In this document: one piece after another, positions 16,001 to 63,100 of the stretch
Numbering within the stretch: position 1 is the first letter of the stretch
Layout of the letters: the number at the start of each line of letters is the position of its first letter
Origin: Hormiphora californensis
Lineage: Eukaryota; Animalia; Ctenophora
Assembly: GCA_020137815.1 (NCBI GenBank)
Contig: CM035357.1
Coordinates: 4,836,001-4,900,000 of the forward strand
Direction of reading: 5' to 3'
Length of the DNA stretch: 64,000 nucleotides
Program-made: the position numbers and the translations under genes
Notes under the pieces: model-generated
What the model was told of the DNA's origin: nothing
Seen by the model: the letters and a program-made list of their open reading frames with translations, nothing else
The model's database searches: none

Positions 16001-19000
16001 TGTGAGTGTTTATGATTTGTCTGATTACTATCGTAACTCCAATCTCAGATCGATCCGATGAAGTCAGAAGATGGAATTTATTTTGACATGCTATGGTCAG
16101 CGCCAGAACTAATTGGCTACGCTGAGGCCGGGGACAGAAAACTAAGTGGAAGTCAGAAGGGAGACATTTTCTCTTTTGCAGTCATTGTAACTGAAATAAT
16201 GAGTAAAAATGTGCCATACGGTGACCAGTTTAACTGTTCAGCAAAAGGTACGCCAATTGCTTCCATCTTTCGGGTTGTTGAGGAGCACTCAATAACTTAC
16301 GGGTGGGCCATATGGGCAATTTCTCATTTGCCGCATACGGCGTCTAGACGGCGTCGCACCGCCGTCTAGACGGTGTCTAGACGGTATACCGGCTAGACGG
16401 GTTTCGATAAAAATCAGCTAAAAACGGTACCAAAATTGCTTGAAACGGGTTATAGACGGTATCAGACGGTCTCTAGACGGGTTATAGACGGTATCAGACG
16501 GTGTTGCGACGGTATCAGACGGTCTCTAGACGGTACCGTCCCGGTGTCTAGACAGTGTCTGGACGGTCTCTAGACGGTATCCGTCCAAAGTTGAGACGGC
16601 ACGTCTGAAAATTGTACCAGACGTTGAGACGGACTTTTAGAACTCCGTCTGTATTTCAGATACCGTCTAGACAACTTCTCCAGCAATTTCGATACGAATA
16701 CCGTCTAAACAACGTCTAGACAACGTCTCAAATGCAGCTGTAAATAGAAATGTAAAAAGGAGATAATACAATATTAAAGTAAAAGTTGCCTAGACGGTAT
16801 TTGAAACTGAATCGCGAGATTCTGTTTAGACGTTGTTTAGACGGTATGTTGACCGGTTTCAGTTGAGACGTTGTTTAGACGGTACTTTCATCGATTTTCC
16901 TTTAGACTGCGTTTAAACGTACTTTTAAAACTCCGTCTGAAATACAGACGGAGTTCTAAAAGTCCGTCTTAACGTCTGGTACAATTTTCAGACGTGCCGT
17001 CTCAACTTTGGACGGATACTGTCTAGAGACCGTCCAGACACTGTCTAGACACCGGGACGGTACCGTCTAGAGACCGTCTGATACCGTCGCAACACCGTCT
17101 GATACCGTCTATAACCCGTCTAGAGACCGTCTGATACCGTCTATAACCCGTTTCAAGCAATTTTGGTACCGTTTTTAGCTGATTTTATCGAAACCCGTCT
17201 AGCCGGTATACCGTCTAGACGGCGGTGCGACGCCGTCTAGACGCCGTATGCGGCAAATGAGAAATTGCCCTCATATAGACACCTGGCGCGAGCTCAATCT
17301 CGGTCGCGCCAGGTGTCACCAACCCTGAACCGGGCCAAATCGCTATAAGATACATTTCGCCGACACACTCACTAGGGACTATCGCATCAATTTGATAGTC
17401 CCCTCCCTAGTGTGATCCCCAGACTCAGGCAAGAAGAAGAAGTAAAACGATAAGTATTTTTATTTTTTTAATGCATTCCAAATTCTACTCAATTCTCAAA
17501 ATTTTGAAAACAAAATATTTCTATAATCACACTCGGCGTTTTAGCCTGTAAGGTCCAATAAAGAAGGTCTAATAGGACCAATGTCCGATTACAGACCAAT
17601 TATAGACCAATTACCAACAAATTGTGGGCCCCCAACCACAAAGTACGCAGTCGGAATTAACACCTTTACAGTCGTCGTTAGTGTCACATCCAACATACCC
17701 GGCCTGATTGCCCCTTTGCCAGCACCATTGCCCAGTTTTCCCACACCACTTCCAGCAACTCCCATTACAACACTCACTTGCTGAAATAAAGGGGGGGGGG
17801 GTAAATGATAACCTGATATGCACGTTTTTGACCATAACTCAGCCATTTCTTGACCAATTTGCAAAATCTTGGGCTCATTGGAAAGAGGACATTGAGCTCT
17901 TTCAAGTGAGCCCAAGCAGAAAACTGCTGATTTGAAATTACATTTTGTGCCACTTTTTGGGCGATTTTTAACCCCTACTCCAATCCAGCAACTTTTTCGG
18001 CTCAAAATGGGTTGTTTACGATGACAACTGATAGAATGGACTACTTTATATGTGAAAAAGGCCAATTCTCAAAAATTTTACTTGCATTTTGACCATATTT
18101 TGATACGTGAGACGGCGTAGTGGCCAACCACTAGAAAACGGGCTATAGCCTTTGGAAGAAAAATAGACTGGTCCCTAAAACTGGTGTTGTGAGATCAAAA
18201 TTTCGTGCCGAACCGGTTCCTGTAAAAATTTTAGGGCTCCGATGAACGAAACCCCGAAAAAATAGCTTGCGAAAATCATTATCAATCTAATATTTGTATG
18301 TATACATATTTATTATATATATATATATTTAATATACACATTATATCGTCACCTTAAAGTGTTACAAAGTGTTACATAGTGTTACAAAGTGTTACATAGT
18401 GCAGTGTTACAAATTGTTACAAAGTGTTACAAATTAAAGGAAGTAATTTTGATATCTCCTTCTGGTGATCAACACACACACACGCCCTCTGTACAACAGT
18501 TTAATGGGGAATCTCACACATACACGGGCAGAACTCGGTTAAGGAGAGATTAATTAGTATTCTGAATAAAGAGTTCAGAGCAAGAATTAAATAGGGAAGA
18601 AAATCGAAAAATACTGGGTTTGACCGGGAATAGGGTTTGGTAGCTTAGTGGTTTATAGCTCCGAGCATGTCTCTCTGGAGGTCCCTGGTTCAATTCCCGG
18701 TCAAACCCAGTATTTTTCGATTTTCTTCCCTATTTAATTCTTGCTCTGAACTCTTTATTCAGAGTGTTACAAATTGTTACAAAGTGTTTCAAAGTGTTAC
18801 AAAAAGTGACCAAAAAATTTTTCTAGCGTAAAATACTGAAATAAATTTGTATTTGGCTGAACCTGACACTGTTTCATGGTGTTTTATACAACATATCCGC
18901 TTAAAATCGGGTGTACGGACCATATAAAATATGTAACACTATGTAACATTTTGTAACACTTTGTAACATGTGCAGAAAACTTTTTGTGCGTGTTACATGT

Positions 19001-22000
19001 TACAAAGTGAGAAAGTTTTGTTTTCTCCTTCCGGCTGGACAAATGAGTAGACGTGGTTTTTATTGTAGAAGAACGCAATAAAAACCACGTCTACTCATTT
19101 GTCCAGCCGGAAGGAGAAAACTAAACTTTCTCACTGATATGCGGCTAATAAACAATCAACCGATCCTTATTCTCTTATATGTTACAAAGTGTTACAAAGT
19201 GTTACGTGTCACCCCCCCCCTATGCAAAAAACTGCATCAAAATTGAGGTTCTGGATCGTTCTGGAGATATTGTCAAAAACGGGGTTTTACATCAAAATAC
19301 ATGTTAGTCAAAATCAGTTTTTGGCGTTTTTCTCAAAACTATGATATCCTTTCAACTTGAAGGTAACGATAGGGTAAGCTGGGGTGAAATGGCCCACGGG
19401 GTAATGTGGCCCATGTATGGGGCAAAGTGGCCCTAGTAATAACATGTGGTCACGTGACTTTTTCTCCAGCGGAGACCTGCTCGTTCTGTTCCGAATTTTC
19501 GCTTTAAAACTGCTGTCATTTCTGTTTGGGTTGGCCGATTTTAATTTTGCAAAAACTGCCAGTTAGGCTTTATAATTCTCTAAAACGTGGTATAAAAATT
19601 TTGAAGAAATTGGCAATTTTTTTGTCTTAATTGTCAATTTTGTGAAATCGGGGCAAATATGGCCCACTCTCCGGGGCAAAGTGGTCCACCTCTAGGACCA
19701 ATGAAATGGCGCCTGCAATACCACGTGACATTGGAATGCACTGGGGCAAATTGGTCCAGAACAAAAATGTAGTCCAGACGGTCAAATTAGGGGCAAAGTA
19801 GCCCATGTTCCGGTGCAGAACATGGGCCACTTTGCCCCTAATTTGATCGTTTCGTCCAACAACACCAGGCACGTGATAAAATCGAGCAATGCTATTGGCT
19901 TGGGCCACTTTGCCCCGGTGCAAAAAAAGCCCCGGTTCCAAAAAAAAGCCTCACCAAATTATTTGAATTGATTAATTAACCCATTAAATAAAACTTGTAG
20001 ATTTTAAAATTTAGCTCGGCTGAAAGGAAAAGGTTTCATTGGATAGCCTATATATTTTTTCTTCCTGCTGTATAAATTGGCAATTTATTAAATTGCGTAT
20101 TTTAGAACCTAAAATGTTAAAAGTGGGCCACTTTTACCCCAGCTTACCCTATACATACCCTATAAAATATTAATTGATCTTACCTTCGCTGGGCAGGGCG
20201 AAGAGCAGAAGAGCAAAGGTGCACAAAATCAGTGTCACTTTCATAGCGGTGTAGCTGTAGTTGATCAAAGAATAATATAATTGAGATGCGTATAATATAA
20301 TGTTGATTAGGTATTTCTAACGGCCCCTATTTAAAGGAGGGACCTGTCCTGTCCTATAACCGATCATTACTCTCCAATATGGCAACATGGAGCACTGTCT
20401 CCTTAGAGAACCAATGGTGGAGGGTGCTGCACTTAGTGAAAAATATTAAGCCAAGGTCCTGTCCGATAAACCGATCTTTACTCTCCAATATGGCAACATG
20501 GAGTACTGTCTCCTTAGAGAACCAATGGTGCTGTACTAGTGAAAAATATTAAGCTGTACTAGTGAAAAATATTAAGCAGCTGTCCTTGAATATTATTCAA
20601 GGACAGGCTAAATGTTCAATGAATAAATATGTTTAAATACTCTGAGCTGTGTGAGAGGACACCGTCACGATGTCTTGGTCTAGAAGTAGACGGTATCTAG
20701 ACGTTGTCTAGACACCGTCTAGTAGACGAGGTCGTCGCGAAGTTGAGAGGCACGTCAGAAAATTTTATTAAAAGTTGAGACGGACTTTAACAAGGCAACT
20801 TTTAGCCTGCTCCCTTGTGTGAGGGGATCGCCCTTCGGGCGTGCGAACATGAGGGGCGTGACGACGTGACGTGCCCAATGCAACTTTCCGTTTGCCGCAA
20901 ACAACGTCTAGATCGACTTGTTGAGTAAGGGGGAACTCAACAAAGATCGACAGGGTGTAGCAACGGTGTCCAGACGGTATTATATACTTTTCAGACGGGG
21001 TTGTACAAGCTAAGTCCGTCTCAACTCTTAATCTTAGTAAAATTTTCAAAATTGCCGTCTCAACTTCGCGACGAAACTGTTTAAACAACGTCTAGTCACC
21101 GTCTAGACGGCGGTGTGACGCCGTCTAGACGCCGTATGCGGCAAATGAGAAATTGCCGGCCATATGCTTATCAAGCTGGTGCAGGTACCAGCTGATATTC
21201 TATAAGTTAACAAAATTTCCCAAGGTTTATCGTAATCCTCATTTTCAGAGATTGTAGAGAAAGTGAAGGCGGGTTACAAGCCTCCCTTCAGACCAGACAT
21301 CCCCTTGGAATGTTCGGATGGATTATCAGAGCTGATCACCATGTGTTGGGATGAACAGCCCGCCCTGAGACCTGACTTCCCTAAAATACTGGGATTCCTA
21401 CAGGTCCTTCACCCTCAAAAGTAGGTGCAGTTGTGATCCTAGTGTAATAATGATACACAACATGTTTGTGCCAATTTAAAAAGATGATGATCAAGCTCCT
21501 AGACGACAGACGTGTCCCCTCACACTTCATTAAAAACCTGCCCCTGAGCTAATTCCATGGTTTTCCCCTGAGCAGACAGAGGTCAATAACGGACCGAATG
21601 ATCAAAATGATGGAGCAGTACACGGATAACTTGGAGGAATTGGTGGCAGAGAGGAGTGAGCAGTTAGCAATTGAAAAAGATAAAGCTGATAAACTGTTAT
21701 GCAGGATGCTCCCCAAGTGAGTAATTGCTCGTTAATTGACGTTTAGTTTTATTAATCTAAGCAACTTGTTTTCATTGTTGAATTTGGCTAAATTTTCCTT
21801 TTTTCAGACCAATCGCGGAAAAGTTAAAACAAGGGGAGCCGGTTCAGCCACAAGCATATGACGAAGTTACCATCTATTTCTCAGATATTGTCGGGTTTAC
21901 AGACCTCAGCTCTCAATCAACTCCTTTCCAAGTTTGTGGTGAAAATTAACTATGTTTTCCTAGATCCTTGAGCTCAAATGACCAACTGACTAGCTCGATC

Positions 22001-25000
22001 TTCTTTCTATATCTTCTTCCTCCATGCACTAAAACATCCAGGTGGTGGACCTGCTGAATGACCTGTACAGTTTGTTTGATGGTATAGTGGAGAGGCACGA
22101 TGTCTACAAAGTTGAAACTATCGGTGATGCATACATGGTTGTATCAGGTATGTGTAGAAGCAACTAAATAGCAAAGATAGCTGTGTTTGGTAATATATTT
22201 TAGTAAAGTATTTTAGTAAAGTATTTTAGTAATGGTAACATTTGTTGACGAACTGCTCTCCAAGGAAATCCTTATCAAGATTGATTTCATTTTTTAATAC
22301 CAACTTTGTTTCCCAGGTTTGCCAGTAATCAACGGTAACCGCCACGTGGCCGAGATCGCCAATATGAGTCTGGACTTCCTGAACTCTGTTAAACGGTTCA
22401 AAGTGAGACACAAACCAGACATTCAACTGAGGCTAAGGATAGGCATGCATACCGGTTAGTCGAACAGTTGCTCTCCCAATTCCCCTACCCTGCTCTCGCA
22501 ATTCCCCTCCTACTCTGCTCTCCCAATTCCCCTTCCTAGCCTATCCTGCTCTTGAGAGCTCTCCGACCAAGTTGCTTTATAATCTGCTCTCCCATGTTTC
22601 TAAAACACTTGCCCTCCCAGAACAAGTGTCGTCCTAAGACCTAACCTCCCTGAAACTTCCCCTGGCCTTCCTAACCCCACCTGCTCTCCCTGTTCCCTTC
22701 CTAACCTCATCTGCTCTCCCAGGTCCCTTCCTAACCTCACCTGCTCTCCCTGTTCCCTTCCTAACCTCACCTGCTCTCCCAGGTCCCTTCCTAACCTCAA
22801 GCTCACCTGCTCTCCCAGGTCCCTTCCTAAACTCACCTGCTCTCCCTGTTCCCTTCCTAACCTCACCTGCTCTCCCAGGTCCCTTCCTAACCTCACCTGC
22901 TCTCCCAGGTCCCTTCCTAACCTCACCTGCTCTCCCAGGTCCCTTTCTAACCTCACCTGCTCTCCCAGGTCCCGTCTGTGCGGGTGTAGTCGGGGTGAAA
23001 ATGCCCCGATATTGTTTGTTTGGGGACACAGTCAACACCGCCAGTCGAATGGAGAGCAATGGAGAGCCGCTGAAGATCCACATGAGCGATAGTTGCAAAG
23101 CAGCCCTGGACAAAGTTGGGGGATACGAACTGGAATGTCGCGGAGAAATAGCTATAAAGGTATGCAGTTGAGCTAGAATTACACATGTCATGAAACTTTT
23201 GAAATTGGGAATCCACATGTTCATGTTTGTCAGATTTAGCTTGCGTAAACCTTGTAACCTTGCAACCCACACATTGTAAACAACACATTGTAAGAGAACT
23301 TCATAAGACATCTACCACCTCAATCTTACCTCAATTTTGTACCCTCATCTGTACCCTCATCTGTACCCTCATCTGTACCCTCATCTGTACCCTCATCTGT
23401 ACCCTCATCTGTACCTTCATCTGTACCCTCATCTGTACCCTCATCTGTACCCTCATCTGTACCCTCATCTGTACCCTCATCTTTACCCTCATCTGTACCC
23501 TCATCTGTACCCTCATCTTTACCCTCATCTGTACCCTCATCTGTACCCTCATCTGTACCCTCATCTGTACCCTCATCTGTACCCTCATCTGTACCCTCAT
23601 CTGTACCCTCATCTGTACCCTCATCTGTACCCTCATCTGTACCCTCATCTGTACCCTCATCTGTACCCTCATCTGTACCCTCATCTGTACCCTCATCTGT
23701 ACCCTCATCTGTACCCTCATCTGTACCCTCATCTGTACCTTCACATGTAACAACTCACATGTAACAACTCACATGTAACAACTCACGTGTAACATCTCAA
23801 AGGGAAAAGGCAACATGACAACGTGGTGGTTGCCTGAACGCCCCAGAGGAGGAAAGTAGCCCGGCACATTCCCATATTTAGCAAACAGACCTCTGACTAT
23901 CCTGGCCAATGGGCATTTGGCAGCATTTGCTAATGGGGCCAGACCCCACTCTGGTAGATCTAGAAGGAGCCATTTTACCGTTTCAATGGGGTCTGCTGTC
24001 ACCATGGAAGACAGGAAGACTAGTTCTAAACTTCTTAAGATTTTGTAGTGTGAGTCTCGAGCAGTGGCACAGGATCAGTTTTCGCATGATTATGATATAG
24101 TAATCAGCAGGTTTTCAATCACAGTTTAAGGGTTTTTATCATTTTCTGCATCCAGGGGTCACCACACACCAAAGTTAAAATTAAAATTAAAATTTGACGT
24201 TTTTGGTCATAACTCTCCCATTTCTTGGCAAAATTGCTTCATTTTGGGCTTGTTGGAAAGAGGACATCGAGCCCGTTCTGAACAGCTCATGAAACTTGAA
24301 ATCCGCGCAAAGTGCGCGGCGTTACAGTGCAAAATGTGTGCGTTAAAATTTTAAAATTTTAACACACGCATTTTGCGCCTTAACGCCGCGCACTTTGCGC
24401 CGATTTTAAGTTTCTTGAGCTCTTTAGAACGGGCTCGATGCCCTCTTTCCAAAAAACACAAAATGAAGCAATTTTGCCAAGAAATGGGAGAGTTATGACC
24501 AAAAACGTCAAATTTTAATTTTAATTTTAACTTTGGTGTGTGGTGACCCAAACTTGTTTGATATTTTATCAATTTATAGCATGATTTGATTACTTTTTTA
24601 TGCATCCTACCAGGCACTATTCAAATCAACTTATCTCGAACACCTCCCTATCACTGGCATGATATTGATCTTATCTTGGGTGTTTTTTTAAGGGCAACCA
24701 TGGTTGATGACAATCCATTATTATCTAAAATCATACTGCCTGATTTCAGCTCTAACCCTGAATTTCTCACAGTATCCCTAACAGCTCCCACTCTTCCAAC
24801 AGGGCAAAGGAATCATGGAGACTTGGTGGTTAATGGGGAAAGAAGCAGAGTTGACAGATTCCAATGAGCTGCTGACGAGTATACCGGAACCTACCCCTAC
24901 TGCAGCAGCAACGATCCTAAAACCCAAATCATCCATAAAAAGATCAGCTGAGCGACGGAGTTTCAAGCGAGCGGGAAAACCAAAACAACCAAATAATACA

Positions 25001-34555: not shown

Positions 34556-57978
<23,423 letters not shown>

Positions 57979-58828: not shown

Positions 58829-59830
58829 ATGTTATCTGTCCACCATCTCTTCACATGGATACTGGCCGTGTTCCTTATTCCGGTAAGACTAAGATATAAC
58901 ATCAATTGTTGATCAATTATTGTTTATCAGGATACAAAGAATAACGCTGTTTTGGGTAGACTCAATTCATCAAATAAAATCGTGAAAACCGCACAAACAT
59001 CAGCAAATTAGTTCATCAAATAGAACTCGTCACCAGCATTGTGTTCATGTTTTGTTTCATTTAAAATGTTATCATTTCTAGGTTGTTCTATCTGGAGGAA
59101 CAGTAAAGGTTGAATACAGGAGTTTCAAATACGATGGATGTTCAGCCCACACTTCTACATGTCAGATGAAGCTAACAGATTTTCAACTACTTATTGACAG
59201 TGTTGCCATTGTCAACAAGAGTGAGGTTAACCTACCAGCCGGAAACCCTGTGACACTGTCCGATGTTAACTTTTTAAATGACCCTTTTATAAAACAGTTT
59301 AGTGATGCGAATGGAAAAGTTGGAATATACTTCAAAGCATATGACATCACCAGTGGTACTCCAGGTCGATTGATAGACGATGTTACTGAGAACATTGGGT
59401 TCCATCAGTATGATATGTCTACAGTTGTAGACTGGAAAGAAAAGGTTCGCACGAGGTTTTATAACGGCTATGAGTCTAAATTTACATATTGGGTCGAGAT
59501 TACAAAATGTGGTGATAACTTTACAGGACCTGGATGTGGTGATTGCAAAGAGCACTACTATACGACTGAGTGTGATTTGTACTGCAAACCAGTTACAGAT
59601 CAGTACAACTGTATCGGAGAGGGTGTCCGGGAGTGTTTGGGTAACTTTGGGCCAGCAGGAGACTGCGAGAAATGTAACAAGGGGTGGAAAGGCTCAAAGT
59701 GTGATACCTGTGATATTGGCTGGGCAGGTGACAAATTGTGACACTTGTGATTCAAACTACTACCCTGCCGGAGACTGCTCTGACTATGCATCGGCAACTG
59801 TAATTTCCCTGTATAACAGGGAGCTGGTCT
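58829..59830 (+). pseudogene. Truncated, frameshifted copy (or allelic contig end) of the Delta-like gene
   Basis: Exons 58829-58882 and 59082 onward; +1 T near 59736, then several single-base deletions; similarity ends at ~59830. Confidence 0.65.
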
Positions 59831-61650: not shown

Positions 61651-63100
61651 ATGTTATCTGTCCACCATCTCTTCACATGGATACTGGCCGTGTTCCTTAT
61701 TCCGGTAAGACTAAGATATAACATCAATTGTTGATCAATTATTGTTTATCAGGATACAAAGAATAACGCTGTTTTGGGTAGACTCAATTCATCAAATAAA
61801 ATCGTGAAAACCGCACAAACATCAGCAAATTAGTTCATCAAATAGAACTCGTCACCAGCATTGTGTTCATGTTTTGTTTCATTTAAAATGTTATCATTTC
61901 TAGGTTGTTCTATCTGGAGGAACGGTAAAGGTTGAATACAGGAGTTTCAAATACGATGGATGTTCAGCCCACACTTCTACATGTCAGATGAAGCTAACAG
62001 ATTTTCAACTACTTATTGACAGTGTTGCCATTGTCAACAAGAGTGAGGTTGACCTACCAGCTGGAAACCCTGTGACACTGTCCGATGTTAACTTTTTAAA
62101 TGACCCTTTTATAAGACAGTTTAGTGATGCGAATGGAAAAGTTGAAATCTACTTTAAAGCATATGACATCACCAGTGGTACTCCAGGTCAATTGATAGAC
62201 GATGTTACTGAGAACATTAGGTTCCATCAGTATGATATGTCTACAACAATAGACTGGAAACAAAAGGTTCGCACGAGGTTTTATAACGGCTATGAGTCTA
62301 AATTTACATATTGGGTCGAGATTACAAAATGTGGTGATAACTTCACAGGACCTGGATGTGGCGATTGCAAAGAGGACCACTATACAACTGGATGTGATGT
62401 GTACTGCAAACCAGTTACAGATCAGTACAACTGTATCGGAGAGGGTGTCCGGGAGTGTTTGGGTAACTTTGGGCCAGCAGGAGACTGCGAGAAATGTAAC
62501 AAGGGGTGGAAAGGCTCAAAGTGTGATACCTGTGATATTGGCTGGGCAGGTGACAAATGTGACACTTGTGATTCAAACTACTACCCTGCCGGAGACTGCT
62601 CTGTACTATGCATCCGGCCAACTGTAATGTTCACCTGTAATAACCAAGGGGAGCTGGTCTGTGAACCTCACGTAACAGGGGACAACTGTGACAGTTGTGA
62701 AAAAGAGTGGGACGTTAGGACAAACTGTACAAGCTGTGCAGATAACTTCTATCCAGCGGGGGATTGCACTGTTTACTGCCTGTCTGATGATAACTTTGCG
62801 TGCACTGCTCAGGGAGTTCGGCTGTGTACAATAGGAAGTACTGCAGAGGAATGTGTTTCCCACAACAACTTGGTCGGGGAAGCTATCCTGGGTGGTATGA
62901 TATCTGGTCTCACTGTGGTTCTACTCGCCGGATTGGTTGGGATAATTGTGGTTACTATTAAAAGGAGGAGGGATACTGCCGCTGAACCGATTGTTCATCA
63001 AGGCCCAACAACAACCCAGCAGGAGGAACATGATTATGTGGAGATGAACGATTACAGAAACAAGCCCATAATACCTGAATCGGGGATTTATAATGATTGA
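61651..63100 (+). CDS. Delta-like type I membrane protein, 416 aa: signal peptide, MNNL/C2-like N-terminus, three DSL-like modules with EGF-like linkers, TM, Tyr-motif tail
   Basis: Exon 1 61651-61704 (MLSVHHLFTWILAVFLIP, donor GTAAG) plus exon 2 61904-63100 in frame. DSL-like: CKEDHYTTGCDVYCKP..YNCIGEGVREC, CDSNYYPAGDCSVLC..FTCNNQGELVC, CADNFYPAGDCTVYC..FACTAQGVRLC. TM ILGGMISGLTVVLLAGLVGIIVVTI followed by KRRR. Confidence 0.85.

Follow-up and report, generated by a model that had tools for sequence, protein, structure and literature searches.

Host gene and termini of the inserted block

The locus studied here lies in a 64-kb stretch of ctenophore DNA, referred to below as the window. A large intron (16248–21248, plus strand; 5001 nt, GT..AG), delimited by the surrounding exons, interrupts a receptor guanylyl cyclase gene in its kinase-like region. 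The six exons around it are identical to the Pleurobrachia bachei model P0015 at 316 of 318 aligned positions, and the host gene encodes a ctenophore receptor guanylyl cyclase of the Pleurobrachia type. The intron contains a 4.8-kb block bounded by terminal inverted repeats (TIRs) at 16315 and 21157. Without the block it would measure 149 nt, and the neighbouring introns measure 121, 123, 260, 155 and 91 nt, the next one (155 nt) lying at 21421–21575. The host splice sites are intact around the block.

According to the first-pass annotation, a single TIR forms both outermost ends in inverted orientation, an exact 9-bp duplication lies outside them, and the inner end of the left MITE (17269) lacks this flank. 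Both observations were confirmed. The termini at 16315 and 21157 are inverted copies identical at 67 of 69 bases. They are flanked on the plus strand by the 9-mer GGCCATATG, the target-site duplication (TSD), at 16306–16314 on the left and 21158–21166 on the right; these are its only two occurrences on both strands of the window. The exact match ends at 9 bp without extension on either side, and the probability of such a duplication by chance, from base composition, is about 3e-6. A scan of the 64-kb window with the TIR 18-mer, allowing up to three mismatches, revealed exactly three sites (16315 on the plus strand, 17269 and 21157 on the minus strand), whereas 0.06 were expected; no TIR ends beyond these three were found in the window. 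The sequence next to the inner end, 17270–17278, shares just 2 of its 9 bases with the duplication. The perfect inner TIR is flanked by unrelated sequence. This flank occurs once in the block, as expected if it is half of an older target site of the left element.

Two unlike foldback elements

The left element, A (16315–17269), is a complete foldback MITE with a TIR at both ends, as revealed by arm alignment, 11-bp periods and DNA folding. It is a near-perfect foldback of 955 bp, in which two arms of ~345 bp (16315–16660 and 16936–17269), made of 11-bp repeats, enclose a non-palindromic centre of 275 bp. The arms are identical in 332 of 346 alignment columns, with 2 substitutions and 12 gap columns, and the DNA fold of A has a z of −56 relative to 20 shuffles. 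Long palindromes can raise the question of an assembly artefact, and several near-perfect inverted repeats do lie within the block. Such an artefact is very improbable, because a mis-join would not place an exact duplication of 9 bp directly against both TIRs in an otherwise intact intron, and because the arms of A differ by these substitutions and indels around a centre that is not palindromic.

The right element, B (20660–21157, left boundary approximate), was recognised by arm alignment as a decayed foldback of a related subfamily. Of the 87 bases aligned between its arms, 78 agree, and the alignment has 21 gap columns. B has an intact outer TIR, whereas its inner terminus lacks the first ~52 TIR bases, the left arm beginning at TIR position ~53. 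A and B have the same terminal 69 bp, yet past these they are only ~70–73% alike, A being complete and B belonging to a different subfamily. The first-pass view of two MITE arms therefore needs to be amended: both are foldbacks, but they are not a matched pair, since B is different, decayed and without its inner terminus. A younger age of the outer end of B than of the remaining element was also considered (p 0.035 at 9.5% divergence) but dropped, because the arms of B differ by only ~10% in aligned bases.

The structure of B bears on whether the block is an ordinary Pack-MULE, in which one B-type element captured the gene and transposed, and its left end was later replaced by an A-type MITE via repair. 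A and B agree at 67 of the terminal 69 bases, which would be enough to prime such repair, and Ssk-FB4 of Drosophila, discussed below, is a precedent for capture of a nearly whole gene by one element. This history is nevertheless improbable, as nothing of a left arm of type B remains after A, the 8-mer core motif has no copies in the cargo, and both arms of B lie on the right side.

The 64-kb window contains no further copy of A, of B or of the peptide gene described below. None was found in metagenome or viral contigs either, where ctenophore DNA is not expected, so that this negative result carries little weight. A TIR scan of the metagenome contigs, a collection not expected to contain ctenophore DNA, gave no matches, and all 11 TIR 18-mer matches in viral contigs were rejected as chance, since none of them extends past 19 bases or carries the core repeat.

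A predicted secreted-peptide gene between the elements

The 3.4-kb cargo between A and B holds a two-exon reading frame on the minus strand. Exon 1 (coding part 20184–20244, 61 nt) encodes a predicted signal peptide, judged from hydropathy (mean 2.8 over residues 3–17), and is the sole match of a signal-exon scan of both strands of the 64 kb. Exon 2 (17611–17780), preceded by a pyrimidine tract and CAG acceptor, encodes a 55-residue mature peptide with 10 cysteines, followed by a stop; it is one of four Cys-rich candidate exons in the window. The two exons (20244–20184 and 17780–17611) fuse in phase 1 over a GT..AG intron of 2.4 kb (17781–20183; GTAAG donor, CAG acceptor), giving 76 codons with one terminal stop. 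A TATA-like word (20327–20335, minus strand) is located ~85 nt upstream of the ATG, and a candidate polyA signal AATAAA (17459–17464, minus strand), with ATTAAA 8 nt upstream of it, sits 147 nt past the stop codon. The first-pass annotation had proposed a whole antisense transcription unit here. The two exons and the intron stand as an open frame, whereas the promoter and polyA signal are motif matches only.

Several repeats and inverted repeats are nested in the 2.4-kb intron of the peptide gene, and the peptide frame is intact despite these insertions. One is a perfect 71-bp inverted repeat (18561–18763) around a tRNA-Thr-like sequence at 18633–18709 (RF00005, 34.4 bits), found by repeat, tRNA and Rfam searches; it is likely a SINE foldback. 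Another is a TIR element at 19372–20149 with inverted ends identical at 28 of 30 positions and TA flanks on both sides. Rfam miRNA matches at 19024–19118 were under the gathering score and were set aside as a plain hairpin. Short hairpins number 6 in the 3.4 kb of cargo versus 22 in the 59 kb outside.

As the product, one would expect a small secreted peptide with disulfide bonds. The locus appears to reveal an unannotated, predicted cysteine-rich secreted peptide of a ctenophore. We searched for its relatives widely. There was no match in Pfam, NCBIfam or PHROGs, and a word search found no relative among proteins of 30–98 and of 99–2000 residues. With phmmer, no relative was found at a cut-off of E 0.001 among 1.84 billion protein representatives, although the wider collection includes P. 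bachei gene models; all three hits were discarded as unrelated Trp-repeat and bacterial-type repeat proteins. PDB sequences (best E 0.49) and a phage search (best E 7) gave no relative, and in Atlas the best score was 0.80, with recognition under threshold. The peptide was also not found in viral, metagenome and genome contigs, the single contig locus returned being an 8-residue chance match. For a single-sequence structure model (pLDDT 68, pTM 0.43), fold searches matched nothing (best E 2.4 and 5.9 with Foldseek, best Z 2.4 with VIA); this is not evidence for a new fold. A search of the open-access literature on ctenophore cysteine-rich peptides and ctenophore Mutator elements yielded nothing on this element or peptide.

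One likeness was seen by eye. The Tha p 2 allergen family of processionary moths shares with the predicted ctenophore peptide a signal peptide, 10 cysteines and a predicted three-stranded sheet (PMC11335235). In an unscored alignment by eye of a Tha p 2-like protein with exon 2, 9 of the 10 cysteines correspond, together with ~20 residues spread over four short blocks. Tha p 2 is longer, with 100 residues after the signal peptide compared with 55 here (PMC11335235), and a Tha p 2-like protein was returned by none of the search tools, nor was one within the phmmer cut-off of E 0.001. From its size, its cysteines and this by-eye likeness, our guess is that the peptide most likely has a defensive or surface role.

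The lack of a homologue in all these searches would fit a block that moved as a unit with a cargo that is not a working gene, the frame being due to chance or belonging to a silent pseudogene. This explanation, which overlaps the other alternatives, is distinctly unlikely. Among 2000 dinucleotide shuffles of the cargo, none gave a signal exon joined in phase to a Cys exon (a signal exon alone arose in 9, a Cys exon alone in 26), by criteria that were set with the gene already in view. The even cysteine number, the canonical splice sites, the polyA motif and the 9 cysteines aligned with the Tha p 2-like protein also argue against it.

Probable movement of the block as one unit

The 9-bp TSD and the long TIRs of short tandem repeats suggest that the block belongs with Mutator/Foldback elements, for which a 9-bp TSD and repetitive TIRs are described as the mark (PMC3169594, PMC8277862). 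Its outer ends belong to two separate elements with the TSD outside only, as in a macrotransposon. The 3.4-kb cargo with its two-exon frame falls in the size range of Pack-TIR elements (100–5000 bp of non-TE sequence between TIR ends, as defined by Tan et al. 2021). None of the 12 open reading frames of 65 or more codons inside the block encodes a transposase. Taken together, the block, with related foldback MITEs on its two sides, is probably a non-autonomous macrotransposon of the Mutator/Foldback type that a transposase moved in trans together with a predicted peptide gene. The first-pass annotation had proposed that the 4.8 kb moved as one unit. This is the simplest reading, because the duplication is present only outside the outermost ends, a perfect inner TIR lacks it, and removal of the block leaves an intron of normal size; we retain it as something that we infer. 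The macrotransposon reading rests on one locus.

The block may instead have been assembled in place: a foldback or an A+B dimer would have inserted first and made the duplication, and the gene would have been copied between the arms later without ever being transposed. Gap repair or template switching offers a route, and most single-copy animal Pack-TIRs are attributed to transposition-independent gap filling in a survey (PMC8277862). A single copy is known here, and the inner arm of B is broken off, like a capture breakpoint. However, capture breakpoints fall inside an element, whereas the left junction coincides exactly with the final base of a perfect TIR, leaving A whole. A and B are also of different subfamilies, and the arms of A are nearly undiverged, while several older-looking insertions lie in the cargo intron. 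We regard capture in place as fairly unlikely.

Under movement as one unit, the older foldback B would have lain, at a donor locus, ~0.4 kb ahead of the start of the peptide gene, and the younger foldback A would have been gained ~0.2 kb past the polyA signal of that gene. A MULE-type transposase from elsewhere may have paired the outer TIRs of A and B, skipping the inner TIR of A, the inner end of B being already unusable. The block would have been pasted 66 nt into the ~149-nt host intron with duplication of 9 bp. The host gene would still splice around it, and the antisense cargo would be transcribed on its own, from its predicted promoter to its predicted polyA signal.

It is unlikely that the block represents an active ctenophore foldback macrotransposon family carrying a complete, self-expressing Tha p 2-like peptide gene of defence or venom type to many loci with presence/absence polymorphism; if it did, it would be an animal counterpart of bacterial composite transposons with selected cargo. 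A complete MITE such as A is normally the preferred substrate alone, which makes it doubtful that the entire block moved repeatedly.

Comparison with known systems

To our knowledge, whole-gene transport by DNA transposons is known from few animals. In Drosophila, paired FB elements of Ising's TE reportedly bracket and move white/roughest, as two foldbacks bracket a gene here; these units are said to be very large, to have been observed in the laboratory and to end in like elements, in contrast to the A/B pair. The contrast drawn in the first-pass annotation, that Pack-MULEs usually carry gene fragments only, was overstated. According to Tan et al. 2021 (PMC8277862), the Ssk-FB4 Pack-MULE of D. 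melanogaster holds an almost complete intron-containing gene in a Foldback/MULE with 9–10-bp TSDs, and is multicopy, expressed and repeatedly transposed. The present block resembles it in Foldback/MULE-type ends, TSD size, non-autonomy, an intron-containing gene with upstream region, and an animal host. As described there, Ssk-FB4 is a single FB4 element with internal capture that lacks ~200 bp of 3' UTR, whereas here two unlike MITEs enclose a gene with a polyA motif inside. Ctenophores are named zero times in the main text of the same survey of 100 animal genomes (PMC8277862), and its pipeline, by its authors' own statement, may miss cases in which the source copy is linked to the TE (PMC8277862).

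In maize Ac/fAc macrotransposons and composite insertions, the ends of two nearby elements are likewise used jointly, the DNA between them moves, and the TSD lies at the outermost ends (PMC9910405, PMC4270019). Those are plant elements of the hAT superfamily with an 8-bp TSD and experimentally observed movement, whereas here the ends are Mutator/Foldback-type MITEs and movement is deduced from one locus. The Tm1 Mutator/Foldback family of root-knot nematodes shares composite TIRs of short tandem repeats, a 9-bp TSD and MITE-like members with the present block; one member encloses the transcribed, spliced locus Cg-1, and for this family both an empty site and a transposase candidate have been reported (PMC3169594). 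Tm1-HH is a single element of ~1 kb with no evident coding potential, unlike the block (PMC3169594).

Thus, this route of gene movement is already known from flies and maize, and what differs here is the ctenophore host, the two unlike MITE ends and an orphan peptide gene that appears self-contained. The locus would be a clear record, left in nature, of how two small MITEs relocated a gene together with its intron and its predicted regulatory signals. Should the block prove multicopy and expressed, one could test on it directly how peptide families specific to a lineage expand; a single-copy block would be a good example of a process already known. As for a partner transposase, Pleurobrachia has 16 FLYWCH genes with a Mutator-transposase-derived domain, which the authors read as transcription factors (PMC10027918); we note these genes as a lead only.

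Ends of the block and the interrupted intron

The block, about 4.8 kb at 16315-21157, lies between two exact copies of a 9-bp duplication (16306-16314 and 21158-21166). The duplicated 9-mer has no further occurrence in the window, and its chance by composition is about 3e-6. Directly inside the duplication, the inverted termini are identical at 67 of 69 bases, confirming the first-pass annotation, which had described the outermost ends as inverted copies of one terminal inverted repeat (TIR) with an exact 9-bp duplication. With at most three mismatches, the terminal 18-mer occurs three times (16315, 17269 and 21157), against 0.06 expected. The copy at 17269 is the inner end of element A, the left foldback MITE, and its flank resembles the duplication at only 2 of 9 positions; the absence of the duplication there had also been described correctly.

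The block interrupts an intron of a plus-strand gene, identified as a receptor guanylyl cyclase by Pfam matches (ANF receptor and kinase-like) and by its cyclase relatives. Over six exons around the site, 316 of 318 aligned positions match EukProt model P0015, which carries the label Pleurobrachia bachei, and identity to Bolinopsis and Mnemiopsis proteins is about 85%; the window would thus come from P. bachei or from a ctenophore very near to it. The intron (16248-21248, plus strand, GT..AG) is 5001 nt long; without the block and one copy of the duplication it is 149 nt, and neighbouring introns are 121, 123, 260, 155 and 91 nt. In a host cyclase exon at 22039-22456, two overlapping tblastn matches surround a 13-bp tandem repeat; part of the exon may be duplicated there.

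Elements A and B

The foldback MITE at 16315-17269, element A, is complete, with arms identical in 332 of 346 columns, 11-bp internal repeats and a centre of 275 bp. Element B, the right, decayed foldback (about 20660-21157, left boundary approximate), carries a separate pair of inverted arms (78 of 87 aligned bases identical, 21 gap columns); at its inner end the TIR is missing its first ~52 bases. Close likeness between A and B is limited to the terminal 69 bp, falling to about 70-73% beyond. Thus, arms are present at both ends as had been claimed, but they belong to unlike elements, one of them incomplete. A short hairpin motif in the centre of B (20917-20945) recurs near 48884 (48884-48917), possibly another small repeat family.

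A Pfam search recognised no transposase among the 12 ORFs of at least 65 codons in the block; a thirteenth ORF on the list is the host exon. The putative assignment to Mutator/Foldback comes instead from the 9-bp duplication and repetitive TIRs, which two papers give as marks of this class (PMC3169594; PMC8277862).

Origin of the block

The best reading of the sequence, at this one locus, is macrotransposition. A and B would have bracketed the peptide gene at a donor locus, a MULE-type transposase from elsewhere would act on their two outer TIRs, and the block would then be pasted into the guanylyl cyclase intron. Because the inner end of B is broken, any use of B would need pairing with a distant end. 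Macrotransposition would account for three features: a duplication confined to the outside, a foreign flank next to the perfect inner end of A, and an intron that has a normal size once the block is taken out. These features favour the earlier proposal that the 4.8 kb moved as one unit. In the main rival reading, the arms were there first and the gene was captured between them. PMC8277862 describes such capture as the usual origin of single-copy Pack-TIRs in animals, but an exact TIR-cargo junction, as at 17269/17270, is less expected under it. As for the partner transposase that macrotransposition would require, one report gives 16 FLYWCH genes in Pleurobrachia and derives the FLYWCH domain from Mutator transposase (PMC10027918); this is only a lead.

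The predicted peptide gene

The cargo, the DNA between A and B, contains a predicted secreted-peptide gene on the minus strand. The leader encoded by exon 1 (20244-20184) is first basic and then hydrophobic, and a GTAAG donor follows this exon; exon 2 (17780-17611) is preceded by a pyrimidine tract and CAG. Their phase-1 join gives 76 codons, with a predicted mature peptide of 55 residues and 10 cysteines. When both strands of the window were scanned for signal exons, exon 1 alone came up, and a scan for Cys-rich exons gave four candidates, exon 2 among them. Of 2000 dinucleotide-shuffled versions of the cargo, judged by exon criteria fixed after the gene had been seen, 9 gave a signal exon, 26 a Cys exon and 0 both in phase. 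The claim of a whole antisense transcription unit stands for the two predicted exons, the intron and the open in-phase frame, while its promoter and polyA signal are motif matches only (a TATA-like word ~85 nt ahead of the ATG; AATAAA 147 nt past the stop codon). The predicted promoter region also contains a 111-bp tandem duplication (20346-20554).

Repeats are nested in the 2.4-kb intron of the peptide gene, suggesting that this gene predates element A. One repeat (17822-17916) has copies outside the block at 24197-24278 and 24414-24508 (76-80%); therefore, the cargo contains the host genome's own repeats. A TIR element flanked by TA (19372-20149) is nested in the same intron, with an internal 33-bp hairpin (19778-19850) and a weak relative near 45903. 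At 18561-18763 there is a perfect 71-bp inverted repeat, whose loop and right arm are occupied by a tRNA-Thr-like sequence (18633-18709), the sole tRNA call in the window; the whole resembles a tRNA-derived SINE whose 3' part is present a second time in inverted orientation. A hairpin at 19006-19135 (60-bp arms, 98% complementary, 10-nt loop) has no evident flanking duplication, and its Rfam miRNA matches are below threshold.

Sequence, profile and word searches found no relatives of the peptide (Pfam, NCBIfam, PHROGs, PDB sequences, phmmer and Atlas; phage, viral, metagenome and genome contigs). A single-sequence structure model (pLDDT 68) has three strands and a short helix, and a fold search with it gave no match. 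One Tha p 2-like protein (PMC11335235, supplementary file 2) has 10 cysteines; in an unscored comparison by eye, 9 of these cysteines align with exon 2, as do about 20 residues spread over four short blocks. According to that paper, Tha p 2 is a moth allergen of unknown function with a predicted three-stranded sheet (PMC11335235). The likeness may be taken as a lead only, because the comparison is unscored and chance alignments can occur among cysteine-rich peptides.

Comparison with known elements

Paired FB elements in Drosophila move whole genes. The block resembles Drosophila Ssk-FB4, described in PMC8277862 as a multicopy, expressed Foldback/MULE element with 9-10-bp target-site duplications, whose cargo is an almost entire gene including an intron, and the proposed way of working is that of maize Ac macrotransposons, as outlined in PMC9910405 and PMC4270019. 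It is thus already known that elements of this kind carry genes in animals. What is distinctive here is the ctenophore host, the two unlike MITEs as ends, and an orphan-peptide cargo seemingly keeping its predicted promoter and polyA signal. No report of the present element or peptide was found in the open-access literature. That the block belongs to a multicopy, expressed and polymorphic family is improbable.

Elsewhere in the window, a DSL/EGF (Delta-like) coding exon is present twice, in near-identical form, at 59082-59741 and 61904-63100; in the upstream copy the frame stops early, and unrelated sequence comes next.
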